From positions 64,001-128,000 of IMG/VR virus record IMGVR_UViG_3300022752_003639: a stretch of 64,000 nucleotides of DNA. One strand, given 5' to 3'. This document shows positions 6,851 through 62,777 of the stretch, piece by piece. Every line of letters starts with the position of its first letter. Within the stretch, counting starts at the first letter, position 1. The notes under the pieces were generated by a model. That model did not search any database. It was not told the origin of the DNA and saw only the letters and a list, made by a program, of their open reading frames with translations. This stretch comes from a virus. The position numbers and the translations under genes are program-made.

Positions 6851-9010
6851 ATGTTATTAAGACAATTATTTGAAAATACGTCAACACCTAAAACCGCAGT
6901 GTTAGGATGGGGTAGAGGTATGGGACACAAAGGTCATATGCTATTGGCCAAAGCTGTACTGCATCATGCTCAAGAAAATCAAGCTAAACCTTTCTTTGTG
7001 GTCAGTAGAACTAGTCTAGTAGATCCTAGCACAGGTCAACCCTGGGCAGATAAACCCACATTTACCAAGACCAAAGATGATCCTCTTACACCAGACGAAA
7101 AACTCAATACTTATCGCAAGGTATTCCCACAAAATGCAGAAGTATTCAGTGTGGCCACGGCAGATGCTACTAAGTTAGAACAGGTCATGGCAAAAATTGC
7201 CCGTGAAGGATTTAATAAAGTCATATTGGTTGTAGGTGAAGACCAAAAAGACTCAATGGGATATCTAACTCGTCCTGCTAAATCAACAGGCGTTCCACCA
7301 TATAAAGAAGCAGGAATAGATCAATTAGAAATTATCAGTAGGCAAGATACTACAGAACCCAGCAGTATGAGAGGCAGTCCAGAATATCAAGAAGGACCTA
7401 GAGCCACACCTATGCGGCAGGTCCTAATGGATCCCTCAAAGAGTGAACAAGAACAATTTGCCATATGGCGCAGAGACATGCCAGATAATTTAAGTGATGA
7501 AGAAGTCATGGATCTCATGCTCAAGGCTAAACAGCGTATGAGCATGGTTCCTGCTGGTAAGCGTGGCGTAAAAGAACGTATGCTACCACCTAGCACATTT
7601 GCAGGCTATCCAAAAAACAAACTTGGCGCTGCTGCTCATTTAAAAGGTAAAATGAAAAGACCTGCCAGAGCAGGTGATCTTGTAGGTGATGCTCAAGAAA
7701 GTATAGAAGAAGATTCATACAAAATTGCCCCCGGAGATAATTTATCCACTTTGGCTAAGAAATTTGGCACAACGGTAGATGCTCTAATGAAGGCCAATCC
7801 ACAAATAAAAGATGCTAATCGTATACAAGCAGGCGCTACACTAAATGTTCCTAGTCAAGGCAGTGATCCTAAAGGTTCAGTAAGATCCGGTCCTAACACA
7901 AATATCAGGCCAGATACAAGAGCAAGAGCACAGGCACAGGTAGCACCTTTAGACAAACCTAAAGCATCAATACCGCAAAAGTCTAATGCCTTACAAGAAC
8001 CTGGATTCATGGAAAAACTAAAACAGGTTGCAGACAATCTACAGATTAACGCAAATGATTTATTAGGTGTAATGAAACATGAATCACGTATGAATCCAGC
8101 AGCAGTGAATCAGCAATCAGGTGCTACAGGACTAATACAGTTTATGCCACGCACAGCGCAGAGTCTAGGAACTTCAACAGACGAACTCCGCACCATGAGT
8201 GCATTAGACCAATTAGATTATGTAGAGCGTTATTTTAAACCTATAGCAGGCAAGGCCAAAGACATAGGTGACCTATATATGTTTACATTCATGCCGGCAG
8301 CAGTGGGCAAACCAGATGACTTTGTAATTGGTGTAAAGAATGGTGACAAACCTTTGTTTGGTCTGAACCAAGGAAAATTATATGCTCAAAATTCAGTATT
8401 CGACAAAGATAAAAAAGGATATTATACTGTAGGTGATATCAAATCTCGTGTATCTGGATTTGCTGAAGGTGTAGAAGAAGGTTGGAAATCTAAACTAGCA
8501 GGACTTGGATTAGCGGCTGCTGCGGCTATGGCGCCAGGTAAATCAGATGCTAGAGTAAACATAGATGACCCAGATAGTTATCGTGCTCCGGCTCCTATAG
8601 CACAGCAACAAAAAATAGACTACACAGCACCCGGTCCTGTTACAAAAGACAGCATGGGACAGAAATTAGAGTATGGTATTCCTGTTACTCCAGACGGCAA
8701 ATTTAAGGCACCTAGTCAAGATTTACCAGACGACGAATATGCTCAACAGTTAAAAGCCTATAAGACATGGAAAGCAGACTTTATGTCTAGGTGGCCTGAC
8801 GCAGTATGGAATAGTGATGGTAGTGCGAAATCTAATATGAAACCAGGTCTAGCACCTATGGCGCCAGGATATAAACCGGGCAGTGGACAAGGACTAGCAC
8901 CTGTATTTCCGGGTGCGGTTAAAGAAGATAAATTTGTACCACTCAGTGAGGATGTAGCCAGTATCTACAAGAGTTTATTAGACACAATTTTAATTAACGA
9001 ACAAAAATAA
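6851..9010 (+). CDS. Fusion of HxGH (cytidyltransferase-like) nucleotidyltransferase, LysM and lytic transglycosylase (SLT)
   Basis: GRGMGHKGH and VVGEDQ; LysM YKIAPGDNLSTLAKKFGTTVDALMKANP; SLT HESRMNPAA..GATGLIQFMP. Confidence 0.75.
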   Translation: MLLRQLFENTSTPKTAVLGWGRGMGHKGHMLLAKAVLHHAQENQAKPFFVVSRTSLVDPSTGQPWADKPTFTKTKDDPLTPDEKLNTYRKVFPQNAEVFSVATADATKLEQVMAKIAREGFNKVILVVGEDQKDSMGYLTRPAKSTGVPPYKEAGIDQLEIISRQDTTEPSSMRGSPEYQEGPRATPMRQVLMDPSKSEQEQFAIWRRDMPDNLSDEEVMDLMLKAKQRMSMVPAGKRGVKERMLPPSTFAGYPKNKLGAAAHLKGKMKRPARAGDLVGDAQESIEEDSYKIAPGDNLSTLAKKFGTTVDALMKANPQIKDANRIQAGATLNVPSQGSDPKGSVRSGPNTNIRPDTRARAQAQVAPLDKPKASIPQKSNALQEPGFMEKLKQVADNLQINANDLLGVMKHESRMNPAAVNQQSGATGLIQFMPRTAQSLGTSTDELRTMSALDQLDYVERYFKPIAGKAKDIGDLYMFTFMPAAVGKPDDFVIGVKNGDKPLFGLNQGKLYAQNSVFDKDKKGYYTVGDIKSRVSGFAEGVEEGWKSKLAGLGLAAAAAMAPGKSDARVNIDDPDSYRAPAPIAQQQKIDYTAPGPVTKDSMGQKLEYGIPVTPDGKFKAPSQDLPDDEYAQQLKAYKTWKADFMSRWPDAVWNSDGSAKSNMKPGLAPMAPGYKPGSGQGLAPVFPGAVKEDKFVPLSEDVASIYKSLLDTILINEQK

Positions 9011-9020: not shown

Positions 9021-9458
9021 ATGAAACAACTAATAGAAATAGCTAAAATTGCTTTTGCCAGTGAATTCAGTTTTTACTTAAAAGCACACCAATTTCATTG
9101 GAACGTAGAGGGTGAAGATTTCTTACAATATCACGACTTATTCGGTAAAATTTATGAAGAAGTATATGGAAGTATAGATGATTTTGCAGAAAAAATTCGC
9201 AGCTTAGGGTCTTACATGCCAGGCAGTTATACACGTTACAGTATGTTGAGTAAAATAGAAGATGAAGATCAAATACTTCCTAAAGATCAAATGGTATCTG
9301 AACTTATGAAAGATAACGAACGAATGTTAATTATTTTCAAACAGGTGTTCGATGCCAGTGAAGCTGAACATGAACATGGATTTAGTGATTTTATAGCAGG
9401 ACGTATGGACGCTCATCGTAAACATGGATGGATGTTAAGAGCATCAATGAAAAGATGA
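9021..9458 (+). CDS. dps: Dps / ferritin-like DNA-protection protein
   Basis: HQFHWNVEG..F..YHDLF..IYEE....IDDFAEKIRSLG, terminal HRKHGWML. Confidence 0.9.
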   Translation: MKQLIEIAKIAFASEFSFYLKAHQFHWNVEGEDFLQYHDLFGKIYEEVYGSIDDFAEKIRSLGSYMPGSYTRYSMLSKIEDEDQILPKDQMVSELMKDNERMLIIFKQVFDASEAEHEHGFSDFIAGRMDAHRKHGWMLRASMKR

Positions 9459-9796: not shown

Positions 9797-10176
9797 TGAG
9801 AGCAAAGGAATTTTTGCAGGAAAGATCTGCTAAAACACATGGTAAATTTACAAGTTTATCAGCAGACGCAGATGCGGCACTTCCTGGTGTATGGGTACAA
9901 AGACAATTAAGAAATACTGATCCATATATGCAATATAGATATGCACTTGCTGTGGCAGCAGCAAGGGCAGATAAAAGTGGTGAAATAGAATTTAAACAAG
10001 AAAGTCCATGGGCTGAAAATTTAACCATAGTAGGATATACTCCAGAAGATGCAGATGTTGTTTCCATGGCAGATAAATTAATGGGAGTCAAAGGTACACG
10101 TATTGCTGATGATAAAAGTAAAGAACCTAAAGATACAAACACCGTAAGCCCTATACCAAATTGGAATAAATCATGA
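9796..10176 (+). CDS. Hypothetical internal protein, paralog B (start refined to ATG 9796)
   Basis: TAATG overlap; MRAKEFLQE...TNTVSPIPNW. Confidence 0.6.
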   Translation: MRAKEFLQERSAKTHGKFTSLSADADAALPGVWVQRQLRNTDPYMQYRYALAVAAARADKSGEIEFKQESPWAENLTIVGYTPEDADVVSMADKLMGVKGTRIADDKSKEPKDTNTVSPIPNWNKS

Positions 10177-12974
10177 GCGAATATAAGAAAATAACTACAC
10201 CCACTTTAACTCGTTTCGTTCTAGAAACTATGACCGCAGGTGCCACAGGTTCTGCAAATATTGCCACATCGATGGGCACTATAGGCAAGACTATCAAGCG
10301 TCAACAAGAAGCCAAAGATGACAAGGTGCCTCAAAAGCCACGTCAAGGTCCCCTACGCCCACAGACAGGTGCAGGCGCACACAAAGATAAAAAGCGAGAT
10401 CAAAAACAGGGCAAAGAAAAACATCGCAAGCCTTTCTATGAGCAACATACAGATCATGAAGTGGAAATGGCGCAGAGTGATACATACCAGTTGGCCAAAC
10501 AGGCTGCAGAACTACATAAAATTCTAATGCGTGCCAGTGAAGAGCAGGGTCTAGAAGGTTGGCAACAGGCTAAGATCACAAAGGCAGCAGACTATATCAA
10601 TGCTGTCTACAAAAATCTCAATCACGATGTAGACATGGACGGTCATATTGGTGAGCAAGCTCTATCAGAATTAGAAAAACCCAGCGGAACACTTTATATA
10701 ATATTATTAAGAGACAGAACAGAATCTGTTCGTGTAGTAGGAGACTTTGGGACATTTCCAGCAGAAGTGCAGGCCCGTGCCAGCAAGGTAGGTATTAAGG
10801 ATAAAGAAGGTCGCAAAGAGCGTCCTCTAAAAGTTAATTTTCTAATGACTAGTGCCAGCCAGGCTCTAGCAGAATTAGACAAAGCACTAGCAGATGTAGA
10901 TTTTATCGGCGGAGAAAAGGCCGAGTTCGTATTTAAAAATTCTGCTTTTGAAACAGACATAGAAGATGAGGTGAGGGAACTAAATGATCTAATTCGAAGT
11001 GGTGCGGACGAAAGATTTAAGAACTATGAAGAACCAGAAGTAGGTTCCGAACCAGAGACCAAACCTAAAGGTGTAGATCATTTTGTTGTTGGTCCAGATG
11101 GCAAGCGTCGTCGTGTGCCTATACCAGGAAAGCCAAGTAGTCAAATGGGAGGTCATGCTGTAGAACAACCTAAAACATTTACCTACCAACTTAAGAAAAC
11201 AGAACTAGGTCCTAAACTACGCTCAATGGGCTTTAAGGTAGATGGTAGTCAAATTGTATTGAGCAAACAACAGCGTGATCAATTACTGGCAAAAATGGGT
11301 GATCAACAGTTCGGACAGATATTCGGCCAGGGTGGTAAGTTCACAGAAGGTGGCTATGACGATCAGTTTAGCCTCGGAGGCAGACTAGAAAGAGACGACG
11401 ATTTTCGCAATAGAGAACGCAATGCTGGAGTTGAACATGAAAGAAATAACTACCAGGTAAGCATAAATGGTAGGCCTTGGAAAGTGTTTGCCGATCAAAG
11501 GCAAGCTATGAATATTGCTAGAAGTCTTAAAATGAAAGGCAAAGAAGTAGAAGTTTATCCTACAGGAGCTAGGCCCTCAGAAAGCGTGGGAGAGGCAGTG
11601 AAGAAACCTAATGCTACTACTCGTCATTTAAGAGATTATCCAGTTAGTGATAAGGACGTGGCCAAGCCTGTTAAGAAACCTGAAAAGAAAAAACCAGAGC
11701 AAGGTGTGGCGGAAATGGACAAGAGCCAACCCAGCCACGGTCGTGATGGTAAGATTAGCCACAGCACCTATGGTTCAAGAGATAAAGAAGGTTCTGACTA
11801 TTTCAAAGGTAAGGAAGTTTCTGTTAAGCCTATTACCGTAAAGAAGATGGAAAAAGACGCACTTGATATTCTCAAGAAGCAAGGTGTGGCGGAAGGCTCA
11901 TTGGAAACTGACAATATGGTATCACATATTAGTCAGGTAATACAAAGCATTTATCCACGCGGTGGTGATAAAAATACATATATGAAACTGGTAGCCCGAG
12001 AAATGCCACGTATAGTGAAAGCCAATCCTAAACTATTCAGAAGAGCATTCGGTATGGCATATGATAGATTCTTTCATATAGACCAAGACGACGATCAAGA
12101 TGACGATTTTGATTATACTGATCATAGTATGCGTAAGGGTGAGCGTGGTATGGCGGAAGTCAGAGGCAATATTGATGCTGATCAAGCAGGATTTTATGTT
12201 GTCGACGAGGACGGAAACGCAGTTTCTGGTCCATTTGCTTCTAAACAAGAAGCATACGAACGAGCAGCCGAAATGGGTCGTATGTATGATGTAAAATATA
12301 AAGGTGATATAATACCTTTAGATTCGTTAATTAGTAAAATAATAAAGACACTACCACCAGATGTAACAAGTGATGATCTTCAGGACCCAATGGATCTTGA
12401 GCAACAATTAGAAATACTAAGAAGTCCATTAGTAAAAGTATTTTCTAAATTATCACCTTACGAACAAGCCGAAGTCACAGACGAAGTAGCGAATTATTTT
12501 TATGACAGAAGATTTGGTGATTTAGATGAAGGAAAGATCAAAGGTGTGGACGGTAAAGCCTGCTGGAAAGGCAAGCGTTATGCTGGCAAGGTCAAGAAAG
12601 CAGATGGCACCTACAAAGACAAATGTGTAGAGGATGTAGTAGAAGCACTAGAAGAAGTTAAAAAAGGTCTTTACTACTATGTGAACAAGCGTAAGAAGGC
12701 AGGCACCAGTAGACCAGCCAGCCATCCAGATGCTCCAAGTCCACAAGACTGGAAGAACGCTGCCAAGACTGCTAAGAAAGAAGATACCTATTCAGAAAGT
12801 CTGTTGAATCAACTGGATGCACTGTTAAATGAAAAGGCACCTCCAGGTGACAAGTATGAGCGTATGGTCAAGCATATTAAAAAAGGCTATAGCAAAGACG
12901 GCAAAATTACAGACAAAGAACGCAGCATCGCATATGCTACAGCATGGAAGGCTAAAAACAAGGCAAAAAAGTAA
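10173..12974 (+). CDS. Large modular putative internal head (poly)protein
   Basis: 933 aa of unrelated short charged modules separated by x-x-E junctions (QGVAE twice, RGMAE, KFTE, LDE, LNE). Confidence 0.65.
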   Translation: MSEYKKITTPTLTRFVLETMTAGATGSANIATSMGTIGKTIKRQQEAKDDKVPQKPRQGPLRPQTGAGAHKDKKRDQKQGKEKHRKPFYEQHTDHEVEMAQSDTYQLAKQAAELHKILMRASEEQGLEGWQQAKITKAADYINAVYKNLNHDVDMDGHIGEQALSELEKPSGTLYIILLRDRTESVRVVGDFGTFPAEVQARASKVGIKDKEGRKERPLKVNFLMTSASQALAELDKALADVDFIGGEKAEFVFKNSAFETDIEDEVRELNDLIRSGADERFKNYEEPEVGSEPETKPKGVDHFVVGPDGKRRRVPIPGKPSSQMGGHAVEQPKTFTYQLKKTELGPKLRSMGFKVDGSQIVLSKQQRDQLLAKMGDQQFGQIFGQGGKFTEGGYDDQFSLGGRLERDDDFRNRERNAGVEHERNNYQVSINGRPWKVFADQRQAMNIARSLKMKGKEVEVYPTGARPSESVGEAVKKPNATTRHLRDYPVSDKDVAKPVKKPEKKKPEQGVAEMDKSQPSHGRDGKISHSTYGSRDKEGSDYFKGKEVSVKPITVKKMEKDALDILKKQGVAEGSLETDNMVSHISQVIQSIYPRGGDKNTYMKLVAREMPRIVKANPKLFRRAFGMAYDRFFHIDQDDDQDDDFDYTDHSMRKGERGMAEVRGNIDADQAGFYVVDEDGNAVSGPFASKQEAYERAAEMGRMYDVKYKGDIIPLDSLISKIIKTLPPDVTSDDLQDPMDLEQQLEILRSPLVKVFSKLSPYEQAEVTDEVANYFYDRRFGDLDEGKIKGVDGKACWKGKRYAGKVKKADGTYKDKCVEDVVEALEEVKKGLYYYVNKRKKAGTSRPASHPDAPSPQDWKNAAKTAKKEDTYSESLLNQLDALLNEKAPPGDKYERMVKHIKKGYSKDGKITDKERSIAYATAWKAKNKAKK
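11698..11714 (+). repeat. 17-nt direct repeat copy 1, AGCAAGGTGTGGCGGAA
   Basis: Identical to 11878-11894; encodes QGVAE. Confidence 0.85.
11878..11894 (+). repeat. 17-nt direct repeat copy 2
   Basis: Identical to copy 1, 180 nt downstream. Confidence 0.85.
12142..12158 (+). repeat. Degenerate repeat copy 3, AGCGTGGTATGGCGGAA
   Basis: 14/17 match; encodes RGMAE. Confidence 0.65.
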
Positions 12975-13014
12975 GTGAGCAGGAACCAGAAGATCCGACC
13001 ACGGATCCTGCTCA
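12965..13014 (+). promoter_or_regulatory. Candidate -1 programmed ribosomal frameshift signal
   Basis: In-frame A AAA AAG (12965-12971), TAA, then hairpin TGAGCAG/CTGCTCA plus GATCCG-ACCA-CGGATC (12976-13014). Confidence 0.65.
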
Positions 13015-13204
13015 GAAGATAAAACCAGTCGGGCCACAACCTAAACTAACACCTAACATGCCTCTAGATACATGGGTAGATAGATTTAAGAATGAAAAGA
13101 ATGTGTCCAAATATAAACAGTTTAAAAACAAGAGTCCGGAAAAACGTGAACAAATGGCCTGGGCTGCTTACTATGACGCACATGAACCAAAAAGGAATGC
13201 ATAA
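12971..13204 (+). CDS. 77-aa -1-frame extension of ORF 10173 (VSEQEPED...KSPEKREQMAWAAYYDAHEPKRNA)
   Basis: Open -1 frame with no start codon near its 5' end; fills the gap and ends in TAATG overlapping the next start; absent from the ORF track. Confidence 0.65.
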   Translation, partial: VSEQEPEDPTTDPAQKIKPVGPQPKLTPNMPLDTWVDRFKNEKNVSKYKQFKNKSPEKREQMAWAAYYDAHEPKRNA

Positions 13205-13623
13205 TGAGATCATATATTGCCATAGTTGAAGCGTTGAATAAGGGCTGCCCTGTGGCCACATATAATCTAGATGTTAATCTAAAAAATCGTCAAAAGGCCA
13301 TAGATGAATATCATTATGGTCCTGCTAATCCAGATGATGCCGGCGACTACTGGAAGAAGGCTGCTGCAAGATGGAATATCACAGAAAAAACTGCTAAGAC
13401 TATGAAGTGTGGAAATTGTGCTGCCTTTGATGTGTCTGATAAAATGCGTAAGTGTATGGAAGATGGTATCAAGGGGGACGACAAGGCTGTAGACAGTATG
13501 GCCACAATCGAAAAAGCAGATCTAGGTTATTGTAACTTCTTGCACTTCAAATGTGCCGGAACTAGATCATGCACAGCATGGGTCACAGGCGGGGTAATAG
13601 ATAACAAAGATAGAACTGAGTGA
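13204..13623 (+). CDS. Cys-rich protein with HiPIP-like cysteine pattern
   Basis: CGNCAAF...GYCNFLHFKC...RSCTAW. Confidence 0.5.
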   Translation: MRSYIAIVEALNKGCPVATYNLDVNLKNRQKAIDEYHYGPANPDDAGDYWKKAAARWNITEKTAKTMKCGNCAAFDVSDKMRKCMEDGIKGDDKAVDSMATIEKADLGYCNFLHFKCAGTRSCTAWVTGGVIDNKDRTE

Positions 13624-45429: not shown

Positions 45430-48400
45430 TTATAATCCTTGTAATAAATCACCATCATTCTCTGCTAGTGGGTCATTGTTTTCATCATATAATTCTAAGT
45501 TTCCTCCATAATAGTATACGCTTGGTAATTCAGCCGGTCCACGACGTAAGAACTTAGCTTGAGTGCTTGTACTAGTCAATATCGAACTGGTTGAAATATC
45601 CCAAATCTTACTGGTTTTCTTAATTACAGTAATTCTAACACCTGGAATAACTTCTTCGCTAATATTTAACCTTAATGTTTGACTCGTGCCCACTTGTATT
45701 GAAAACTCTGGAGGTAAAATTTCATAACTAGCTGTATATACACCATTTACAAATACAGAAGATGTATTATCATAAGCACGACTTATATCATGCACGGTAA
45801 CAGAATCCTTACGTAAACGACGACCTCCATAATATACTTCTACCTGATCTTCGAAAGCAGGTAACACACCATTAGTTGTAGTGGTTAATAAAACTATACC
45901 ATTTCCTACACTAGTTGTTGTATTAACACTGAAAGAACTAGTATTAGTTAGAGTACTAATAATGTAGGTTGTTGTATTGGAACTAGGAATATGTTGTATA
46001 TAACTTCTTTCTTCCGTGGACATATTCTGTCTCATACTCTGATCATAGACTAATGTACCAGCATCTGAATACCAAGGAGTACCAGTACCATAAGTTCCCC
46101 TGCGTAATTGTGTAAGTTCGTTACCGTTTTTCACAAAAAATTCAATTCTTTCACTGTCAATAAACACAACACCTGGTATATTTTTACTAGGATTAGGAGA
46201 AAATAATACACTTCCATCTTCAACATGAATACTTGTATCATAATAATTTAAAGGCTGCGCCAGACGAGTCCTAAAAAATCTTGTTATACGTTGTAGACTT
46301 TGTCTGTCAAAAATATCTTTCCATATTCTGTAGGCTAAAATATTCGTTGAATAATTCACCGGATTAATTGTATTAATTACAATCTTAGATCCTAATACCA
46401 TATCAACATCATTACCAATTACAACCGTTTGCATATCTGACTTCAAATAAAAATCAAATCCTGCAATAAGTGACTGATCATTTGCAGTGACCCAAACGTA
46501 GTTTTCATTGAAAACTGGCAGGCTTAGGTAATATTCGTTGTTGTGACTTAGGTCAAAAGTTTCAGTTCTTATTCCCATAGAATCATGATTTTGGAAATGG
46601 GTTACCTTTAATGATCCGCTGGTAAGTGCAGTTTTTAGTCTAATCTGATTTTCTAAAACAACGTAACCATAATCAACTAGATCCATAATTGTTATGGTAT
46701 CATTATTCCTAAGAATGCCTGTATTAATTGTAACAGTTTCAGCACCTTGATTAATAGTAAAATCAAATCCTGGTCTAATTTCATATCCATTTACATAGAC
46801 TTTTACATTTTGGTTATTATAAATTCTTCCGCTGCGTTTATTGTTAATATCATATGTATTTTGTAAGTTGCTTACCTTGTAATAACTTATATCAGGAGGA
46901 AGCAATCTTACTCTGCTACCATAATTATTACCAGATAAATGTTCTACTATCACCTGACCAGATATTGGTTCTAGCATAAAGGGCGGACTTGCAAATGTCA
47001 GTAAAGAAGTTGTTGTACTAATGACATAGTACTGCTCGACTATACGATTTAGTGATTCAAAATTATTTCTAAAAAACCATGCTAGAACTTCATGCCTACC
47101 AGAAGGTATATTTTTAATTTTTACAGACGCACGTTTGTTGTCTGCACTGACCGGTTCTAATACATATCCTAACGATGTGCCTGTTACATATTGGTTAACT
47201 GATACTCCATCGAGCTCAACATAAGCTCTGCTGACATCGCTGAATGCTAGATCACTAATTAAAATTGTATTAGATGTTGTCACAAAATCAACTGCTGCTG
47301 TTTGACTGTCTAAGCCTGTAGATGATCCTGCTGTTACATAGGAATATCCAATTTTACCTTGTGCGCTTTGAGCTGCTACAGTTAGTTTATTTCCTTGCAA
47401 GAAGTAACTACTGCTGTTTAGTCCGGGTAAAGGATATGACGACGACCTACTTAAAGGTCTTCCGTCAAAAGTTACTAATAATCCTGCAGGTATTTCACCT
47501 GTTATAAAGTTTATTGTGGCCGTTGTCTCTACTCCCGGTTGAGTAAAAATAGCACCATTAAACATTATAGGATTTATTTTTTCAGGTCTAGTGTATACAC
47601 TTAAAGATAAACTATCTTTTGTATCTCCAGGAACAAATTCTTCTGGAGCATAACTTCTAAATGGATTAACTAATCCATCAGGATTAAATGAGGCTGAAAT
47701 TTGTTGACTTTCTGAACTAGCTTTAATGTAATTTTCAACGTCCAATAAAGTCTGATAACCGTCGACTATAGTTTGTACCCAATAATCTAATCCTCCCTGG
47801 TCTGCATGTCTGTATAGGTATTTTAGATAATACCCATCAATAGAATCTGCATAAACTGTAGCAGTTGTGCCTGGAACTGTTGTATTAAGTTTATTGCCAT
47901 AATATTGACCAACTGGTTTAATCCATCCTCCGCCTTGTACAGAAACATCAGTGGCCGTGATTCCAAATGCACTGGTATTCGTACCATTAAAATAACTGCC
48001 ACCTGATAAATTCACTGTTAATAAATCAGGATCATAATTGTACTTCCAAAAATCTATTTCAGTGTATCCGTATATAGTAGCTGTTGCAGTGGTCATCACT
48101 CCTGTGCTTACCCCAGTAACATTAATAACAGCTCTGGTTACTGTGCCTGAACTAGTTGTTATATACCAGGTAGGTGATCCTGAACTAAATTGCACTGTAG
48201 CAGTTGCAACTTGAGAAAATATTGCATAAGTTTGTATAGAAAAAGTAGAAGTTCCTGTGCTCAGCTTGACTACTTTGTCTAAGACTGATGCTGTAGAACT
48301 TACTGTACTAAGAATACTTAATATTCTAACCTGAGTAGCAGTAGTAACCTGCGAAGTAGTTGCACTAAGAACTTGGGTAGCAGTTACCTCGAAAGTTGAA

Positions 48401-51400
48401 TTAGTAGTGGTTAAAATTGAATATAAACTATTGAAAGTATTATTAACAACATTGGTTATTAAAACTTTATCTCCAACTTTGATGTCACCTCTAAACAACT
48501 TAGTAGTCGTAAACGTAATTCTAGAACCAATTGCAGTGGCAGTGGACACTACCTTTTTAATTCTATAAGTAGGACTACTGATAGTTATTTCGTTTGTATT
48601 TGAGTTTATTGCAGTGACAATAGTTTCAGGTCTTATTCTAATAGTACTGGTATTGCCAATAATTATACTTTGCCCTGTTGTGATTCCGGTGGTTGTGTTA
48701 ACTTTTATTATAGTAGAAGTAGTGTATAAATCTTCTTTTAATTTTACAGTAACATATTCTTGAACTAAATCATCCCAAGGAGCAGTATCATAATTTGTTG
48801 TTCCCCAAGGTGGTGTATCTTGAAATATCATTCCTTCATAAGTAGTCAATGGATAGTCTAATCCAGATACCAAATTAGGAACATCTTTTTCTAACATACC
48901 TGTTGTAGGATTGTAATATTGTTCTATTCTTTCTACAGCATTAAAAAGTGAAATGTTCTTTTTATAAACTACTTTGAATACCTGGTTCGCAGACGGTATC
49001 ACATTTAATAAAGTTATACGAGTAAACGATTTTGCATAATACCCTTCATAATCTTGTTTAAAATATTCTAACTTGTAATCTGTAGAATAGATTAACTTTC
49101 CATTTAAGGTAGGAGTAATTGTACTTCTATCTGTGTTTGCTAACCAGGTTAGTACAAATGTATTTTGCTCTCCGTTACAGATAAATTGATCAGTAACATA
49201 GACATCTTCTATTTCAACGTCCTTAGAAATTCTATCAAATTTAAAACCAATTAAATTTTTACGGATAGTATCATTTGCGATTATAACACTAGCCGTGGCC
49301 TGTTGAGTAACTGAGTTTCCTCCGCCGGTAAACTGAATAATCGGCGCAATAAGGTAACCGCTTCCTGGATTTGTAACTGTAATTTTAACAACTTTTCCTG
49401 CACGTATAAATGCTTCTGCGGTTGCACCTGAACCAAAATCACCACTTACAGGTACTAAAGTTACAGTAGGTCTTTGTGTATATCCTTGTCCACCGTCGGC
49501 AACAATTATTTCCTTAACATAATATGTATGATTCTCTGTCCAGTTTTTCCAAGGCAAGACATTTGTTAATGTGTTGGTTAATGTAAATGCTGTGGCAGTA
49601 GATGTACTTGAAATATGCATCGGAAAGTAACCTAGAGTTTCTTGACTATAAACCGGAGGCATATCGAAGTCTGTTATATTATGTGAAAAATATTCAATTG
49701 CATTATATTTTGAAGTATAATTCCTTAATTGACTATGATAAGGTTTAATTTCTTTAATATAATCTTCAAAATATTTTTCGTTTTCTAATTTATAAACTGC
49801 CCGTTGATCTAATACTCCAAGATCAGTAACAAAATTAACAAATGATGTTTTAAATGCCCAATCTAACATCTTCTGTTCGGTTAATGCATAACGAACACCT
49901 GCAAAAAATAATAAATTCCAATAAACTTTTAAGGCATCTTTGAAAATATCATGCTTTAAAGCATTAATAATATTTCTTAATTCAATAACATTTTTTTGGT
50001 CAAATAGAGTATCCGACAAACCTGATTCGTCATAGTTATAAACTGATAATTCAGTATTCCATAGCTTATCGAGAATTTTAATTGTTCCAGATTCAACGTA
50101 TACACTGTTATAAAATGGTGTTAATGTTCCGTTATTAACTCTTTCAACTATAGTAAATTTGCCATTACCGTTGTTTTTCACTTTAATATACGTTCCTAAT
50201 GGAGCATTATTATAAGCAGTTATACTAGATAAGTTATCTAAAACATACAAAGGAGTTTTAAATTCATTGTAATCATCTGATTTCCAATCAATATAATCCC
50301 AAAATTCTTCAGTATTATAACGTTGGGCGTAAACTTTTACCCATTGATTTAATTGCTTGTTATATTCATGAGCTGTCCATCGTCCATTATTTTCTGCATT
50401 ACTTGTTAATATCGCTGTATAGGAACGAACATAAAGTAACGGAGCTGTTACAAATTCATATCCAGAATTTTCAATTAAGGTAGAAATGATTTCTCCGAAC
50501 TCGTTAATAAATGTTCTTATAGTTGCAGGGGTCTTATTTTCTAAAATTACAACATTAGGTGCAAACAAATAACCTTTTCCAGAATTAACGATATTAACTG
50601 CAACTATTTTTCCATTTTCTACTACACAGGTTAATTGTGCCTGTATAAAAGCTATGGTATCTATTTGAGATAATTGTTGAATAGTATCTACTAAAAAGTC
50701 ATATTTTCCTAATGACTCTGACGGTATTTCATCTTTTAATTTTAAGTTGTCTAAGTTATATAAACCTACAATTTCTTCTTTAGACAATCTGTAATTTGCA
50801 AATGATATAATATTCCTTAGAGCTTCTATTCTATTTTTAAATATTGTTTGTTGCGGTCTGATCCCTATACCATATCTATTTCTATAGGTTAAACTAGGAT
50901 CAGGTACTGGATTACCATCTATGTCTTCACCTAATAAGCTGTCAATAAATTTTTTCTCTAGTAACGCATTAGGAACACTATTAGCATCTCCTTCTGTTAA
51001 CAATAACCATTCTGTATGTCTTGGAATAGGATTATTTTTATTGAACGATATATTAGCACTTATGCGATCATCTATTAATAAAGGCTGTACATTTGCAAAC
51101 GCTACAGAATTAGGACTTAGCAAGGCTGCAAATCTAACACCATTTGCCTGTGGATCTGAAATATAGCTAGCAACTTGGTATGCACTTAATCTTCTATTTT
51201 TTACATCAGGAACTATCAATTTATTTTTTACCCAGAAATAATAAACATTTTCAAATATTCCTGAAACGCTATTATAAATTTGTTTGACAGATATAACTTC
51301 ATTATTAGGATATTTAGGTTGCCCGCTTATTCCCGATGTAATACCCTCGTTGGTATCTGCCTGCGCAGCCCATACACTTGGCAATACATTAGATCTTACC

Positions 51401-54400
51401 CATTCATAAATGTCAATGGTAGATCCGGGAAATACTTTACCCCAATTATTCTTTCTAAAAAGATCATCTCCTTGTTCATACCATGTAAACTTAACTGTAC
51501 TTAGATCCCACCATAATTCGCCGACATGCTCATCTAACCAATTATTTTTATCATCTACAATATTGCTAGATCGACCAATTGAATATATTGCAGGATCACT
51601 AGGAGTTTTATATTTTAATTCCTGCTCTGCTAGTCCTGAAATTTTACCCTTTAACGGATCTATCACTTCTAAATATTCTGTAACTTCTTCTTTATGCTTA
51701 TCTATTAGCGCAATTCGTTCTGCACTATTCGTATCTACTAAATTAGGTTGCTGACGTTTTACAGAAAATATAGATGGCATATCGAAAATAAATGCCATGC
51801 TATTGTCTTCGCCTTGTGTAGTTTCAGAATAAGGAGCGCCAACATATGAGTATCTATTGGTAGAAACTACATCATATCCATATCTACTACCTTCAACTAC
51901 AGCATTATCAATTAGTTCGTGTGCCAGTACAAAATATGAACCAAATCTCTGGTAAGCATAGACAACACCTGCATCAGGAACTATTTCAATAAATTTAGTT
52001 GTACCACCATCAAAAGTAGTTTCATTCTCTTGACTGCTCTTATCAAAAATTAAAGTAACAGATCTATTCGTACCTAGCCCGCTGACCAAAAGTTTCGTTT
52101 CATTTCTATCCAATGACAAACTATGACCAAACTTAAGATCGCTAATAGCCACTGGGTTATAAAGACTTTGTAAAAACTGATATTTGTTATTGCTGTTTAA
52201 TCTGTAAATTACTACAGCTCCATATGAAGTGTCGTAATTTCTATATTCTGGAGCACTGACAATTAAGTATCTTCCTGAATACGAAATAATATGATCCTTA
52301 CCGAATTCTCCTACTGGGCCTGCCGGATTGAATAGTGTTTGATAATGAGTAATCAAGGCATTTGTATATCTAAATACCTGTACCACTCCTGAAGATGTAG
52401 AATCCTGATAACCAGGAGCACTTACTGCTACCAAGGATCCTGTAGCACTACCGCTAACTTTATAACCCCACTGGTCACCTACTTTTAATGTTACCGAACT
52501 AGTCGAATAAACTGCAATTCCACTAAAAGGAATACCGATCTGTATTCCTGCGGCTTTTCTAATTCTGTATGCATAGACATTGCCTTGAGTACCAGTTGTT
52601 ATATTAGTTACTGCGCTTACTATTGTTGCAGAAACTGTTGAAGTAGTTGTAGTATTTAAAGCAAATGTAACTTGATTAGGATAAATGTAAAGCCCTAGAC
52701 CTATATTTTTAGTTCCAGGTGCACCTACTAAAAGTAAAGTATTAGAGGTAGTTGTTACTTCATTTATGTACACAGAATGACCAAATCGTATTCTATCTGA
52801 AGATGTGGAAGAATTAGGGTAAGGATTAGTTAAAACTGCTTCTACTATTTCGTCATCATTGTAAGGTCCTATACTACTGATTTTTACAAGACCTTCGTCT
52901 TCGTATATTCTAGGACTTATTGTTAAATATCCTGTACTGGAAGTAATACTACTAGTAGTAGCCGACAATGACATTGTCCATTGAACATAATCAGGGCTTA
53001 CTACAAATCCGCTATTACTTATTGCTCTTCCTGATGCAGAAAGAACTGTAGCACTATTACTAATAAGAATATCTATTCCATAGACAACATCACTAGGTTC
53101 TTCCTCTAATCCTGTAAACCCATAGATGTTACTAGCTCTTGGTGCGCCGACAATTATATAATTTTTGTTATAATCATAAGCCATGCTGTAACCAAACTCG
53201 GTTGGTTTGGTAGCATTAGCATAGGTTAAATTACTGGAATTTAATGTGTATTCGAACAACCTCTTAGGTAGATCATTTTCTCTTGAAAATACTTTTACCC
53301 TACCATAACTGTATGTAGCAGATGTATAAAAATTAGGCGCTGATACAAAAAATTTATCAGTTCCGTCTCCTGCCCAAATAGTATGACCTAGCTCTTGGGC
53401 GGAAGGTTCTGGAATTGAAGTAATATAGTCTGTTGGATAATCTGTTGTTTTTTCGTACACCTGCCATTTGTTATTGATGCCGCTGTCTACCCAAAATAAC
53501 TCACCTTGATCTAGAGTTAATAACTGTTTCTTATTAACAATTTCTAACAATGTAGAATATCTAACAACGTCAAACACAAACAAATTTCCATAGGCAAATT
53601 GTTCTTCATTTTGTATAGAAGTCAAGGACGATTGAACTGTAAACTGATTAACCTGAGGAATAGCTGTTACTATATATACACCATTAACCTGCGAATTAAA
53701 ATTTACTACACTAACTATATCACCTATACTGAGATAATGATGTAAATTACAACTAAACGTAATATTTTCTCCAGGAGAACTTACATATACTCCGGAAATC
53801 TTTGCTATTTTTTTAATGTACCTATAAACAGACCATTGACCGTTTTCTAAAAATCCGGTCCAAATAGTAGATTTATTTTGTATTTGATTGTTACGAGCAA
53901 TATCTAACAAACTGTTTTTATTATAAGCCGTAGCTGTTACATCATCTAATCTTACGTATCCAGCTGTTGGTAAAATTATCCCAGCATCGTTGAATGTACC
54001 AGATAACTCTGAAGCTGATTGTGTGTAGTTAGAATCTGGTACTTGGATATTTTGTACAGTTATAGTCGGAAAAACTGATGTAGATACATAATCTACAGGA
54101 GTTAATAACAAATCATTTGGTGTAATATAATTAATTAATGGACTAGAATCGTTAGGTAACGACTCAACAAAAGTAATTAAGTATGGATTTTCTAAACTGG
54201 TACCTTCTATTAGCGGAAATTCAACTTCATCATAATTGCTGAATCCTCCATAAAACCCTGACCTAAATGCCCATTCTTCATTAAAGGTAATATCTCCTTT
54301 GTTAACAAACTTACTTGCCTTAGATAATTTGTCAATGGCATTTTTTGTACCTTTATCTTTAATATATCCCTGATAAAATTTATATTGGCTGATAGAATTT

Positions 54401-57400
54401 GTAAAAATGTTGTCAAAATAAGTTCTAGGAGTATAACCTATTAAATGTTGCGCTAATTTTTGTTGACTATAATCAAAGTTATCTATATCTAAACTATAAA
54501 AATCTTCAAATTGTCCAATCTTGTAATCAAAATTAGGAAGTAAATCTGGTACAGGTTTTTCATTTAGCAACGTCCATTTGCTAAAAATAAATTTATCTGA
54601 GCTTTCTACTTTATAAGCAGCCTGATAATAAGAACCATTGAACCTTACAATATCTCCTATTTCATAAGTTTTATAAATTTCCCAATCACCAATTGTAAAG
54701 TTATCATATACAAATCCGGGACTATACAGGTCTCCATTCCAGTCTTTGGTTCTGAAACCCGACAATCTAATTCTTCTTTGTTTATAACCTGTTTCAGTAT
54801 CGAAGATAGTATCATTAAACACAGTTGAATTATTCAATATAATCCCATGCTCTTTCTGTACGCTAATAAATTTTACAAAGAAAAAACCTTCTTCTGTATC
54901 CACAGTTTGTAATGTACAATATCCATCCTCTCTTGTAAGGCTAAAATTTTCCTGAGGGAAGGGTTTACCGTCTGCTTTTAACAAACTATATTCATATCTA
55001 TTATCTTTCAAGTTTTCAACAACACTGTTTAAAAAACTATATTTTAATGAATAAGCGAACGGACTTAATGTGATTAAATTATTATCAGCCCAACCTTGTG
55101 TACACCAATATAGAAATTCTTTTCCACTGTACTTCCAGTCCATTACCTGTGAATACTTTGTTGAATAATAATCAAATTCAAACCCTTGACTTTCTAAGTA
55201 TGCACCGTAACCTGTAATAATATCATATACTTCTTGAATAGAATTTATTTCTGTACCATATATGTATCTTGTAACTTCATTACTAAACTTTTTAGTAGTT
55301 TGTACAGTTACTCCACCTTTACTAGGTAAACTAGGTATACTAGTCCAATATGTAATATCAAAAACACTGCCTGGATTGTGACTAATTTTACATCTGTAAA
55401 ACTTATTATTGTATCTAACAACTTGTCCCTGTTTATAAAAACGTGTAGTAGGACTTGTATTAGCAGAGGATGTCTCAGAATTACTCAATTTATAATTTTT
55501 GTTCTGAGTTATTCCCGACCATTCGGTAAAATCTTCAGTAGTTCCTCCTACAGTTAATGCAGGACTACTATATTCCTTAATAGGCAACAGTGTATCAAAA
55601 TATGGTTTTTCTAAATCATATCCTTTAATAATAAATCTACCATTAACCTTTTGTATTATAATTCCGCTTGCAGAAGCTACCTTAACCGGATTGCTGATGT
55701 TTAATATTATATTGTAATCTTCATAAGGTAATACAAGTCCAGGACTATTAGATACAGGATCGATAGAATCAATATTAATTTGTAATTTTTCTTTATTTGT
55801 AAATCCGCCTAGTTTATAAAACAAATTAAAGTTAAGATAATCTAAATCATTCCTCAAATTTGTAATATAATCTTTATTTCGAATTTTTCCTGCTTCAATC
55901 ACAAGTTGACTATAACCGCTACTTTGTGCGTTATCCTCACCATCTAATATAATCTTTTTAGGACTTAAGTATAAATCGTCCTGTGTATAGGTAATCTGAT
56001 TTATCACATTATAAGAAAGTCTACTAGTATCGAATAACGCAGACAAATAATCTGCTGGATTTAATAACAGACTAACAATGTTTACAGCGTATGGCCAATA
56101 ACTACTATTTTTCCATGCAGTTTCTGATGGACTACCATCTCCAAAGTTCCAAGGGCCGGCACGAGCTCCTAAACTATTTTCTGTAACGAGAGTAGAGGGG
56201 TTAACTAAATTACCAGATAAATCTACAGGAACAATGGTACTAAATCCAGTACGAGCATAGTTTAGATCATACTTAGCAGCCTGAGACGGATTAGATATTT
56301 TCCCCAATGTAATAGCATTTATTAATGCTGCACGTTTAGGTACGTTTGTCCAACTGTAATATGAATCCCACCATGCAGGTTTTTTTGAAAATCCTAACAT
56401 TACCCAGGGTTCGGTATGAGGATGGTCAGTATCGTAAAAATAATTAAAAAAACCTCTCCAATGTTTAGGAATCTGAGTATTATGAATTTTATCTATAGAA
56501 TCTTTATAATTCCAAGTAAAGGAATCAGCGGCATCATAGATTGAATTTGTCCTTACGTCAACGGTATTAATTCCTGCCCAATATGAAAAGTCTTGATTTA
56601 AAATTTCCGTAGCTTGTTCGAATTTAGATCTATTTCTAAATAACCCAGGATAACCTGCTTTAACATCAAATATATTAGATTGGTATGAAACCTTTATATT
56701 ATTATATACCCTCTTTTCATATTCTAATATAATAGCATCTCTATAATCACCAAAAGCAACTAATAAACTACCGTCATGACCTCTGATCATTTGTACAGGA
56801 TTTATAAAGGTGTCATCTGTATAAATTTTAGGTTCATACTTGGGATAGAGTCCTAACTTACTAGGTGTCGGAGGAACAAAGGATCCTTGTGTATTACTAA
56901 ATGTATGAATTTCTATAATATCATTAACAGCCAATGTAGCGACAAATGAAATTTCATCTATATTAATAGTATAATCCGTCTCATAAACACATTGAGTTCC
57001 GTTAAGATAAATGTATAACGATTTAAAACTAAGACTTGTTAGGTTAAAGTCAAACCCAATAGGATAATCGGTAATTGCTGGATTGGTAACTTTATAAGAT
57101 TTAACAACTCTAGTATCTCCGTGGCCTAACATATCTGATCTATAATACGCAGAGGTAAAATCTTTGGTAACGTTAATTTCTTTTAATATTGTATCAACTG
57201 CATCATATACACTTGCATTAGATGATATACCTGATAACTTTCTAATAAAATTTTGTTTAAATTGCTGATAATGATTACCCACAGTTCTTAGAGCATCTAC
57301 TACATTATGTTCTTTTTTACCTATGAATAAATCAGTAAACGCTATTGGATTAGCATTGGTTACAATACGAGTACCATATTTTGTATATCCTGTAATATCT

Positions 57401-59390: not shown

Positions 59391-62300
59391 TTAACTTCCT
59401 GTTGATGTAACAATATTTGTAGTTTGAAGTTGGCTAGATGTAAGCGCATCTATCACTTCAACATCATTGACTGTGGCGCCACTGATTAATATTTCGTTAG
59501 ATAAACAAGTTATTTCGTAAAAACTTCCAAAACCATTTTCATTTTTTGGAAGTATAACAAAGTTAACAATATCAGGTGAAAGTAAATTCATTACATAGGC
59601 ATTTAATTCACTGAAATAAAAACTTTGTCCGAAGTCCCAATTGTTTAAACTAAAAAAAGAATTTATTGCACTTATGATTCTTGTTTTAATATCATTATCT
59701 GTTGTAACAATCTTACTATTTCTTACTGCTTTAAACTTAGCTTGCAGATTACTTGAGGCTTTATCGCCAAATAAAACTTTATATTTTACCGGATTAAAAA
59801 TAATTTCATCACTTATTGCTTTTATTTGAATAAGATATGATTTATAATTTTGTTCTAATTCTTGACTAGTAGGAGGCATTGGTTCAACAGTTAAATCTCC
59901 TTTTAAATAACTTCTAAAATTATTATCATAATTTGTCGTTAACATATAAATGTCAATTAAATTCGTCTTGCTAGGATCTATTCTACGTTCTCTTCCGCTG
60001 TTATGCAGATAATGGAACTTAATGTCGCTTCTTCCTACTCTAGCAAAATATTGATCAGTATATATAAAAGAAGCGGTTGCACTATCATAATACTTTACAA
60101 CATTAACATCTATATCATAAAAATAAAATAATTGTCCGTTAACTTTATCTGTGTCATTTACTAAACTTTCATTAGGTAAAGAAATAAAATTAGCAGAATC
60201 TTGTAAAGAATAACGTAAACCATCGGATAGTTTTTTAAAATATATGAAGTGTTCTCTATATCCGGTAGTACCTAATTCATCTGGTAAAACTATAGCATTG
60301 AAACTTTCTGGATCATCTAACTGTCCAGTATTATTATAGTCATAAAACGAAACTTTAACTTTTTTAGGATTAGCATAGCCGTCCGATTCAACAACAGCAT
60401 CATCTATTTGAAATAATCTATCATAGCCTAAACTAGATGTGCCAGCGGTGTTAATTGATAAAACTTCAATTTTATCTTTTATAACTTGATTAGTTACATA
60501 GTCAAAATTTATACTTGTGCTGTCAATATGGAACGCCGTTTGAGAGAGACTTTCAAATATATAATTCAAGTTTCTAAATCTTACCTTATAATATTGTCCT
60601 GTCCAAACAAAGGCTACAAACCAACTTGAATCAAAACCGGAATCGTCTATGTTTCCTTGTTTATCTAAACTAAACTGGTTTAATAAATTGAGGTTAGAAC
60701 TTAATATTATATCCCATTTTCTTGTAAGCTGATCTATCGTTAATCCAAAGTTTTTTTGTGTCATACAAATATTAGATATTTCATTTTCAATAGTGTATTC
60801 TAATAATTTCGGATACTTTGGAATTATAACATTAGGTACTGAACCCTGGGGAACCCTACAAGAAAATATAACAGGGCCCGTTCCATCATCTAAAAGACCA
60901 TTGCCATAATTAGAGCCATCACCTATTATCTGTTGAACAAGTGCCCAAATATACGATCTTCCTCCTTGAGGAACTGTTGCACTTGCTTTTAAATTATTTT
61001 TCTTATCGTAATAATATCCACTAGGAGCTGCAAATTGTATTAATGCACCTGTAGAAATATACTTCATATCGCTTTGACTAAATTGCCCTACAGACACTGG
61101 CAAATTATTAATTGTGAAATATCCTCTGCTCTGTGAAACAACTTTATTTGTTTCATTCCATGAAACACCTAACACAGATAAACTTAAATTTTCATATTTT
61201 TCAATATAAAAGTTTTTCATAAAACTGCTAGCGATTATATCTGCTAAAGAAGTTTTAACAAAGGCCAATACTTGATTTCTATTAGTAAATGTAAGCTCTA
61301 CAATATTTTCTGTTTCTTCTTGGTAAAGCATTCCGTCGTCTGCAAATATATTTGTTTTACTATAGGCACCACTGACATCAGACAGTTCAAAATATCTACT
61401 GACTCCGCTAGCTATTCTATTAACCGACTTGACCTTTAATATATCGCTACCAGCATTTAATGGCGCAATATTGTAATCTTCCCCAGTTATCATTCTATTT
61501 TGTAGATAATAATTTTGAGGAGCTTTTAATTTTATATTAGCATTACTCTCTGGACCGCTACTATTGGATACTGTATATTGTAAACTTAATGTTAGTTGTA
61601 ATTGATGTGATTGTCCTAAACTATTTACATATGGCAAAGATATTGTAACTCCAGAAAACTGTTCAGGTTTTAATACATACGATGAACCGTTACTTTGCCT
61701 GTAAAATAACCTAAATTGTCCTTTTGGTAAATCTCCAAAAACGCCATCACTAAAATTTAGGTCAATTTGATCGTCTTGTCTAGAACTTATTGCATAAAAT
61801 GTTCTTAAACTTTTACTCAAACTATTGTAAATTACGTTGTTATTCTGTGTTGCAGAATTAACCTTGGTCCATAATGTATTATAATTTCCCGATTTATCTT
61901 TCTGCCATAACCAAACGTCTGTATCATTAATGTTTGTAGTATTAACTGCTATGATTTCATTTGGTACTGGATTGTCAACAGTGAAATCTGCAAAATTTAG
62001 TTTTCCCTGTCTGAAATGAACAAAAAATCCTGTATTTGCACTGCCCGATCCTTGATTATCGTTCTTATAGATAAAACTGAATACATTTTCTGGTTTAGGT
62101 GGATCTTCGTAAATATAATCTTCCCCTGTAAATTTACAAGGAACTATTTCAAAATTCATTTGCACACCGTTAACAGAATTATAAAAATTGAATAACGGAA
62201 CATCTAAATTATCACTGTTTATAGAATAATTCTCTGTACTAACTCCATCGATAACATTTTTATCTACTGGAGTACCGAAATTACTAACCATTGCACTATT

Positions 62301-62777
62301 TAAAATACTAAGGAACTGTGAATACCAATTGGCATTTGTACTGTCATTCCATAATATTGGAGTATTGGCAAGATTTATACCGCTACTATCTATTACATTA
62401 TCTGTTGTGCTTATGCCTGTAATTTTTAAAAAGCCTGTAGCAGGAACATTTCTTTTAGGCGTATAACCTATTAACTGAGCTAGTCTGAGAATACTGTCTC
62501 TACGCTCTGCTGTTTCTAAAAAATTCTCCCTTGCGTTTAGGTCAATCCTAAAACTTAAATTCTGTCCTAAAAACGCAATTAGGTCTATTAAAGCTACATA
62601 TTCGCTACTGTCAATATAATCGTTAAAATCTTCAGGAAAATTATCACGAAGATATGAAATCATTGTTCTTTTAAGAGTTTCAAAATCATAACTCTTAAAG
62701 TCAGCGTTTTTAAAAGATTGATAAACTTTTGTCCAATCTTCTGTTATGAATAGTTTGTTTGAAGTGTTAGGTATCAT
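59391..62777 (-). CDS. Baseplate wedge subunit (gp6-like)
   Basis: DFETLK..DYIDSSEY..NARENFLETAERRDSILRLA..GYTPKR; ITGEDY. Confidence 0.8.
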   Translation of the reverse strand: MIPNTSNKLFITEDWTKVYQSFKNADFKSYDFETLKRTMISYLRDNFPEDFNDYIDSSEYVALIDLIAFLGQNLSFRIDLNARENFLETAERRDSILRLAQLIGYTPKRNVPATGFLKITGISTTDNVIDSSGINLANTPILWNDSTNANWYSQFLSILNSAMVSNFGTPVDKNVIDGVSTENYSINSDNLDVPLFNFYNSVNGVQMNFEIVPCKFTGEDYIYEDPPKPENVFSFIYKNDNQGSGSANTGFFVHFRQGKLNFADFTVDNPVPNEIIAVNTTNINDTDVWLWQKDKSGNYNTLWTKVNSATQNNNVIYNSLSKSLRTFYAISSRQDDQIDLNFSDGVFGDLPKGQFRLFYRQSNGSSYVLKPEQFSGVTISLPYVNSLGQSHQLQLTLSLQYTVSNSSGPESNANIKLKAPQNYYLQNRMITGEDYNIAPLNAGSDILKVKSVNRIASGVSRYFELSDVSGAYSKTNIFADDGMLYQEETENIVELTFTNRNQVLAFVKTSLADIIASSFMKNFYIEKYENLSLSVLGVSWNETNKVVSQSRGYFTINNLPVSVGQFSQSDMKYISTGALIQFAAPSGYYYDKKNNLKASATVPQGGRSYIWALVQQIIGDGSNYGNGLLDDGTGPVIFSCRVPQGSVPNVIIPKYPKLLEYTIENEISNICMTQKNFGLTIDQLTRKWDIILSSNLNLLNQFSLDKQGNIDDSGFDSSWFVAFVWTGQYYKVRFRNLNYIFESLSQTAFHIDSTSINFDYVTNQVIKDKIEVLSINTAGTSSLGYDRLFQIDDAVVESDGYANPKKVKVSFYDYNNTGQLDDPESFNAIVLPDELGTTGYREHFIYFKKLSDGLRYSLQDSANFISLPNESLVNDTDKVNGQLFYFYDIDVNVVKYYDSATASFIYTDQYFARVGRSDIKFHYLHNSGRERRIDPSKTNLIDIYMLTTNYDNNFRSYLKGDLTVEPMPPTSQELEQNYKSYLIQIKAISDEIIFNPVKYKVLFGDKASSNLQAKFKAVRNSKIVTTDNDIKTRIISAINSFFSLNNWDFGQSFYFSELNAYVMNLLSPDIVNFVILPKNENGFGSFYEITCLSNEILISGATVNDVEVIDALTSSQLQTTNIVTSTGS

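Follow-up and report, generated by a model that had tools for sequence, protein, structure and literature searches.

Where does a modular phage protein end when the stop codon of its gene lies directly behind a slippery heptamer? The question is raised by a 933-amino-acid (aa) gene in a 64,000-nucleotide (nt) stretch of viral DNA, positions 64,001 to 128,000 of IMG/VR record IMGVR_UViG_3300022752_003639; "the window" below means this whole stretch. The record from which the window is taken is 138 kb long and only ~35% complete according to CheckV, so the phage must be very large; it is an uncultured giant T4-related phage. An original prediction, made from the letters of the window alone, proposed that a fraction of the ribosomes shift into the -1 frame at the end of this gene. 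Our analysis indicates, with a probability of roughly 85%, that this is a genuine -1 programmed ribosomal frameshift yielding forms of 933 and 1010 aa. The signal, its conservation, coding constraint in the -1 frame and the existence of in-frame relatives are seen directly in the sequences and support this reading. The features of the locus are as follows.

10173-12974, + strand: body, the zero-frame gene, encoding a modular protein of 933 aa that ends K-K-stop (the open reading frame, ORF, ends GCA AAA AAG TAA)
12965-12971, + strand: slippery heptamer A_AAA_AAG in X_XXY_YYZ register (A run 12965-12970, G at 12971)
12972-12974, + strand: zero-frame stop codon TAA, abutting the heptamer
12971-13204, + strand: extension in the -1 frame, 77 codons long and closed by TAA, starting VSEQEPED; the predicted trans-frame product has 1010 aa
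12976-13014, + strand: putative stimulatory hairpin (outer stem 12976-12984/13006-13014, inner stem 12994-12997/13002-13005; 13 base pairs, bp, by RNAfold)
12995-13032, + strand: possible pseudoknot, pairing loop CCGAC (12995-12999) with GUCGG (13028-13032)
13037-13201, + strand: tail module, a small, basic, two-helix domain in no known family
13058-13060, + strand: internal ATG, the codon of a conserved Met, probably not the start of the tail
13204-13623, + strand: next gene, 139 aa, whose ATG at 13204 overlaps the -1 frame stop as TAATG

A slippery heptamer abutting the stop codon

The layout described in the original prediction is present in full. The ORF ends with the heptamer and its adjoining stop at 12965-12974, the hairpin starts 4 nt 3' of the heptamer (the 7 + 6 bp first proposed are an equivalent register of the structure at 12976-13014), the -1 frame stays open for 77 codons from 12971 to a TAA at 13202-13204, and this stop overlaps the ATG at 13204. 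The site therefore has the attributes of an X_XXY_YYZ frameshift signal: a heptamer in register, an RNA structure on its 3' side, and a -1 frame that is both open and constrained. The heptamer by itself is not unusual, occurring 30 times in the window against 32.2 expected. The 19-nt string that joins heptamer, stop codon and first hairpin arm occurs there once, and its conservation in other contigs, detailed below, is far beyond chance. The position of the stop also constrains the product: because the zero-frame TAA forces it, the first new codon in the -1 frame can only be GTA or ATA, encoding Val or Ile.

In the proposed mechanism, ribosomes holding lysyl-tRNAs on AAA-AAG would run into the UAA that follows and into a stable hairpin, which starts 4 nt past the heptamer. 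Some of them would re-pair one base back, reading A_AAA_AAG as AAA_AAA, and continue through the 77 codons of the -1 frame. The slip could be a tandem one on A_AAA_AAG or one in the P site at the stop next to it, in either case stimulated by the hairpin, and the two products would be the 933-aa protein and a 1010-aa protein with the junction ..A-K-K-V-S-E-Q-E-P... We infer both the shift itself and its efficiency from the sequence. Some translation of the next gene may be coupled to the shifted ribosomes, its start overlapping the -1 stop; overlaps of the form ATGA, TGATG or TAATG recur at the end of the -1 frame in many relatives. The N-terminus of the next gene product, M-R-S-Y-I-A-I-V-E (13204-13230), resembles a T4-type targeting peptide ending I-V-E.

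Conservation of the signal, the RNA structure and the -1 frame

The closest full-length relative of the window gene (L002, 61% identity) and two loci found through the extension (L008 and L009) carry the same heptamer-stop-arm string, and a comparison of the three reveals that the string is kept even where the end of the body protein differs. An exact 20-mer from the site was present in 33 IMG/VR contigs, and every one of these has an open -1 frame of 73-287 codons. To avoid circularity, relatives were also sought independently of the slip site, by searching IMG/VR with an alignment of the tail only, from which the part encoded by the hairpin was excluded. This search gave 65 loci in which the tail motif could be placed: 53 were of the frameshift type, 12 had the tail in frame within a long ORF, and none showed any other arrangement. 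In each of the 53, TAA follows the heptamer (A_AAA_AAG in 47, A_AAA_AAA in 6) and the tail lies in the -1 frame. The complete signal in 53/53 out-of-frame relatives thus strongly supports the dnaX/IS3-type shift, with isoforms of 933 and about 1010 aa, that had originally been proposed. Over all frameshift-type loci examined, the heptamer was in register in 89/89 (83 A_AAA_AAG and 6 A_AAA_AAA), and the stop was always TAA. A scan of metagenomes with a degenerate pattern proved too loose to be of use: 112 of its 119 loci were chance matches, and it added 2-3 new junctions.

Homopolymer runs are error-prone, and the A run could in principle reflect an assembly or sequencing error, or a gene in decay, such that the true gene is in frame or the tail is dead. 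We consider this highly improbable. The frameshift layout recurs in ~55 contigs from ~47 metagenome datasets (counted from contig names), always out of frame with a stop abutting the heptamer, and with three variants of the heptamer; the assembly error against which the original prediction had cautioned is thereby excluded. Furthermore, the tail is open, is conserved at the protein level and has a confidently predicted fold (see below), and the in-frame relatives do not carry an A7 run in place of A6 but use a different linker.

The RNA downstream of the heptamer is conserved together with it. The segment 12960-13040 has a minimum free energy (MFE) of -21.8 kcal/mol, compared to -12.2 ± 2.6 for shuffled sequences (z = -3.7), and 0 of 200 shuffles folded as well. 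Of 33 distinct junctions, 31 have the stem arms GAGCAGG/CCUGCUC, beginning 4-6 nt 3' of the heptamer, with loops of ~11-40 nt and MFE values of -15 to -27 kcal/mol. Over the 60 nt that precede the heptamer, mean column identity is ~0.5; from the heptamer onward it rises to 1.0, 0.89 and 0.98 in three 6-nt bins, and then decays. Codon choice within the arms departs from that of the genes themselves. The Glu and Gln codons of the 5' arm are GAG in 32/32 and CAG in 32/32 cases, whereas the body genes prefer GAA/CAA (82%), and CCT-GCT accounts for 64% of the Pro-Ala pairs in the linker, far above the prediction from codon usage, at the position of the 3' arm. Synonymous sites are in this way fixed against codon preference, which points to constraint on the hairpin arms at the RNA level.

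An H-type pseudoknot may form between 12995 and 13032. Its stem can pair in 8/8 sequences of the window's clade, with one G-U, and 28 of 500 shuffles did as well, which gives it weak support. In one member of the clade (L017) a compensatory G-C to A-U change pairs CCAAC with GUUGG, with both substitutions at synonymous third positions. Clades other than the window's have CCGGC with GCCGG at these positions. A scan of 12800-13300 against Rfam returned a single match, to the DnaX element (RF00382) at 12946-13015, spanning model positions 1-65, i.e. the whole model; its score of 19.3 bits lies below the gathering score of 35 (E 0.066), so that the match denotes a similar architecture and is no evidence of homology. 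We also considered the hairpin as an intrinsic terminator and ruled this out: no T run follows it, and a terminator scan lists none on the + strand.

The same two-part reading could be reached without a ribosomal shift if RNA polymerase added one A within the A6 run, giving an mRNA with body and tail in frame and an identical protein. The run is a homopolymer, and one added A would give the same K-K-V-S-E junction. Against this, A6 is short for efficient polymerase slippage, and slippage has no need of a hairpin 4-6 nt downstream, of strict X_XXY_YYZ register or of an adjacent stop codon. We therefore regard it as unlikely at the window locus. Two relatives deserve separate mention. L079 (1482-1500) and L108 (1485-1503) read CTA AAA AAA AAG TAA (A9G) and lack the GAGCAGG hairpin, which counts in favour of polymerase slippage; elsewhere, runs of this length allow efficient polymerase slippage (Atkins et al., 2016, PMC5009743). 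The longer run in these hairpin-less loci may represent compensation for the missing stem, as it appears to be, or a shift toward transcriptional slippage.

The sequence between slip site and tail is also under coding constraint in the -1 frame. Among 35 distinct junctions, 13-41 codons separate the slip site from the conserved Trp of the tail, and this frame is never broken, all insertions and deletions being of whole codons, whereas the other two frames are interrupted there by 1-8 stops. Within it, a Lys-Leu pair 4-5 codons 5' of the internal Met is conserved to at least 90% across frameshift and in-frame forms alike.

These residues bear on the possibility that the tail is a small gene of its own, which starts at the ATG of 13058 or is re-initiated after the stop and is never joined to the 933-aa protein. 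Gene callers do choose the 48-aa ORF that starts there, two listed proteins (P0005 and P0013) begin Met-Pro-Leu-Asp, the internal Met is conserved in most lineages, and many genes of this phage have weak Shine-Dalgarno sites. In the window, the ATG at 13058 is the only start codon in the -1 frame. Four distinct lineages (L082, L088, L091 and L022/L098), however, have no ATG, GTG or TTG in the -1 frame before the tail, and in L086/87 and L108 the first start codon lies downstream of the conserved Trp. Moreover, the 13-41 codons upstream stay open and include the near-invariant Lys-Leu and a [VI]-x-E motif. At 13058 the ATG lacks Shine-Dalgarno pairing (+1.8 kcal/mol, compared to a gene-start median of -2.9), a weak argument given that many real starts in this phage also lack a good site. 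A GTG that follows the stop in the zero frame opens only 5-15 codons. Because residues upstream of the Met are conserved in the -1 frame and some lineages have no start codon at all, the tail is not in general separately initiated, and the idea that it is translated only from 13058, which the original prediction had named among the findings that would refute it, fails. We judge an independent gene to be improbable, if marginally less so than polymerase slippage; that the tail is covalently part of the body protein in 107 relatives, as described next, also speaks against it.

A profile of the tail, searched against 5.8 billion proteins, identified 192 longer proteins that contain it. Among the 120 of these that were listed, the tail is an in-frame C-terminal module of the body in 107, following a linker that ends [LVIM]-x-E|K-L, and 12 start at the internal Met and are gene-caller versions of frameshift loci. 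The first 157 aa of the window protein are 43% identical (E 2e-30) to one relative with the tail in frame (P0030), and it has modules in common, in shuffled order, with another (P0068). The in-frame relatives have a different linker and not an A7 run. In three of them (P0027, P0032 and P0069) the sequence M-[VML]-E|R-Q-L-E-P occupies the position at which L079, a frameshift-type locus, would read V-S-E|R-Q-L-E-P after shifting, so that shifting would rebuild across the junction the continuous sequence that the relatives have. In-frame fusions that lack the hairpin had been put forward at the outset as a finding that would speak against the shift; such fusions do exist among more distant homologues, but they do not refute it. 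The in-frame homologues show that the tail belongs on the body protein.

The part added by the shift would consist of a Pro/Ala/Gln-rich linker, which also encodes the hairpin, and a folded, basic, helical module of 55 aa. AlphaFold2 predicts two helices for the module with a mean predicted local distance difference test score (pLDDT) of 84.6; searches for a fold match in the PDB and for a Pfam family returned none, and PHROGs and the ESM Atlas were uninformative. In several relatives (L011, L014, L016, L019 and L040) the -1 frame continues through 131-287 codons, encoding two to four more modules, separated by x-x-E|N-F junctions. One of these modules, present in P0013, matches DUF6886 just under the Pfam cut-off. 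In such relatives the predicted shift can gate several modules and not one alone.

The body protein and the head-cargo question

The body protein matched no Pfam family, and its relatives, some of which carry DUF7230 and DUF6321, are strings of short modules with linkers of the type Q-G-V-A-E|G between them. The window protein has three such linkers (residues 510-514, 570-574 and 658-662), and its N-terminus, conserved with relatives, includes V-L-E at residues 16-18. The T4 prohead protease gp21 cleaves after Glu in [LI]-x-E. At the frameshift junction the tripeptide is always [VI]-x-E, namely VSE, VIE, IKE or VKE, and the Glu persists also in loci that lack the hairpin; the new x-x-E that the original prediction had noted at the junction is therefore common to all frameshift types. 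Of 5 large contigs that bear the cassette, 3 encode Peptidase_S77, the T4 gp21 family. Processing of T4 core and internal proteins has been reviewed (PMC5694885).

The last body module has homologues among small proteins of Synechococcus phages, with N-termini similar to the capsid-targeting peptide of T4. In two cultured T4-like cyanophages, S-RSM4 (L114:1309-1650) and S-WAM2 (L115:1306-1845), this module occurs as a small protein, and S-WAM2 has a second module of the window protein in the same form; these proteins start M-K-T-F-K-Q-[FL]-R-E-E, much like the T4 peptide. They may offer a tractable system for the head-cargo question. Beyond them, isolated phages gave no counterpart to the locus. 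A megablast of the locus and a tblastn of the in-frame relative P0068 returned no match, and a tblastn of the body matched only a 36-aa module in Synechococcus phages, in genes without a slip site; by these searches, no cultured phage was found to carry the cassette.

From these observations, the 933/1010-aa protein is probably a modular head-cargo polyprotein of a T4-type phage, cut at [ILVM]-x-E by a prohead protease of the gp21 type; its location in the head and its cleavage are plausible inferences. The trans-frame junction always recreates a [VI]-x-E site, and on this reading the shift would set the amount of the last module relative to the rest. Taken one step further, and tentatively, the frameshift, placed at a module boundary of a polyprotein that would be delivered in the capsid, might act as a dosing valve for virion cargo that fixes the copy number of the downstream module or modules (up to 287 aa in relatives) against that of the constitutive modules. 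The output of such a valve could depend on host lysine tRNA and on the translational state of the cell, and the cassette itself could be mobile between module junctions.

The genes around the polyprotein gene include unusual neighbours for a structural protein. Upstream, 6851-9010 encodes a 719-aa protein with cytidylyltransferase-like, LysM and SLT lytic transglycosylase parts, and 9021-9458 encodes a Dps/ferritin-like protein. Elsewhere in the window, on the - strand, an uninterrupted ORF of 4652 aa (45430-59388) is followed by one of 1128 aa (59391-62777).

Weight of the evidence and comparison with known systems

Several points weigh against the proposed frameshift or against the role suggested for it. 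The alignment of slip site and hairpin from homologues, put forward with the original prediction as a check, confirmed conservation but was silent on covariation: the core stem never varies, and covariation thus neither supports nor contradicts the hairpin. Its inner pairs are often mismatched, with one G-C/A-U/G-U exchange seen, and a spacer of 4 nt is close to the lower limit for known bacterial signals. Inspection of the relatives by eye revealed no conserved Shine-Dalgarno-like stimulator upstream, an element that in the DnaX signal lies about 10 nt 5' of the heptamer; the window has GGAAGG 12 nt from the heptamer, and relatives have GAGGA, AAGGA or none, at varying distances. Junction DNA in these modular genes may also be conserved for recombination, which could explain part of the nucleotide identity. 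With respect to cleavage, [ILVM]-x-E triplets are not enriched in the 933-aa protein (16 observed and 14.2 expected), and no gp21 homologue is found on the 138-kb fragment, itself about 35% of the genome by the CheckV estimate.

The proposed mechanism, of the dnaX/IS3 type, is classical. Its gene context is new, as is the cassette family, and the locus is a widespread case of recoding in a type of gene that was not known to use it. We found no description in the literature of the cassette, its proteins, DUF6321 or DUF7230. For annotation, gene callers report two genes here, one of 933 aa and an orphan of 48 aa, an error that recurs in dozens of contigs of uncultured giant T4-related phages and that is corrected once the recoding is recognised. 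For the study of recoding, the relatives form a natural series, comprising A6G with hairpin, A7 with hairpin, A9G without hairpin, and in-frame linkers, that is useful for asking by what route such signals evolve and which of the stimulators they require. Should the protein prove to be head cargo, the locus would show how a phage can adjust the stoichiometry of a single cargo module made as part of a polyprotein.

The internal proteins, Alt and core proteins of T4, which are processed by gp21, are alike in their [ILVM]-x-E linkers (cf. Q-G-V-A-E|G) and in the presence of a gp21-family protease, here on related contigs. T4 cargo is encoded by separate genes with one targeting peptide each, whereas here many modules are joined in one gene; T4 cargo is not known to be recoded. 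In its signal the locus resembles E. coli dnaX, which yields gamma and tau (RF00382), and the IS3 family (orfA-orfB of IS911 and IS150), with A_AAA_AAG, a close 3' stem-loop and two products that have a common N-terminus. It differs from both in that the zero-frame stop abuts the heptamer and that no conserved upstream Shine-Dalgarno-like element was seen; in dnaX, moreover, the shift truncates the protein, whereas here it would add a folded module.

In its outcome the locus is closer to T7/T3 gene 10A/10B, to Ig-like domains on phage capsid and tail proteins and to lambda gpG/gpGT, where late genes use a -1 shift close to their 3' ends, so that some of the protein molecules gain a C-terminal module. 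For Ig-like domains, some relatives carry the domain in frame and others acquire it via a shift (Atkins et al., 2016, PMC5009743), the same pattern as found here. In contrast to these systems, the protein is a modular polyprotein of giant T4-related phages and not a coat, tail tube or chaperone protein, the module has no known fold, and the junction recreates a putative protease site, so that the added part may be released and not displayed. Gag-Pol of retroviruses and totiviruses likewise has its -1 shift where a structural polyprotein cut by a protease ends; the shift controls the proportion of a downstream module and brings that module into the particle (PMC5009743). Gag-Pol belongs to eukaryotic RNA viruses and the shift adds an enzyme, whereas here the virus is a double-stranded DNA phage, the addition is a 55-aa domain, and proteolysis and packaging are putative. 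If the frameshift does act as a dosing valve, the locus would be a double-stranded DNA phage counterpart of Gag-Pol.

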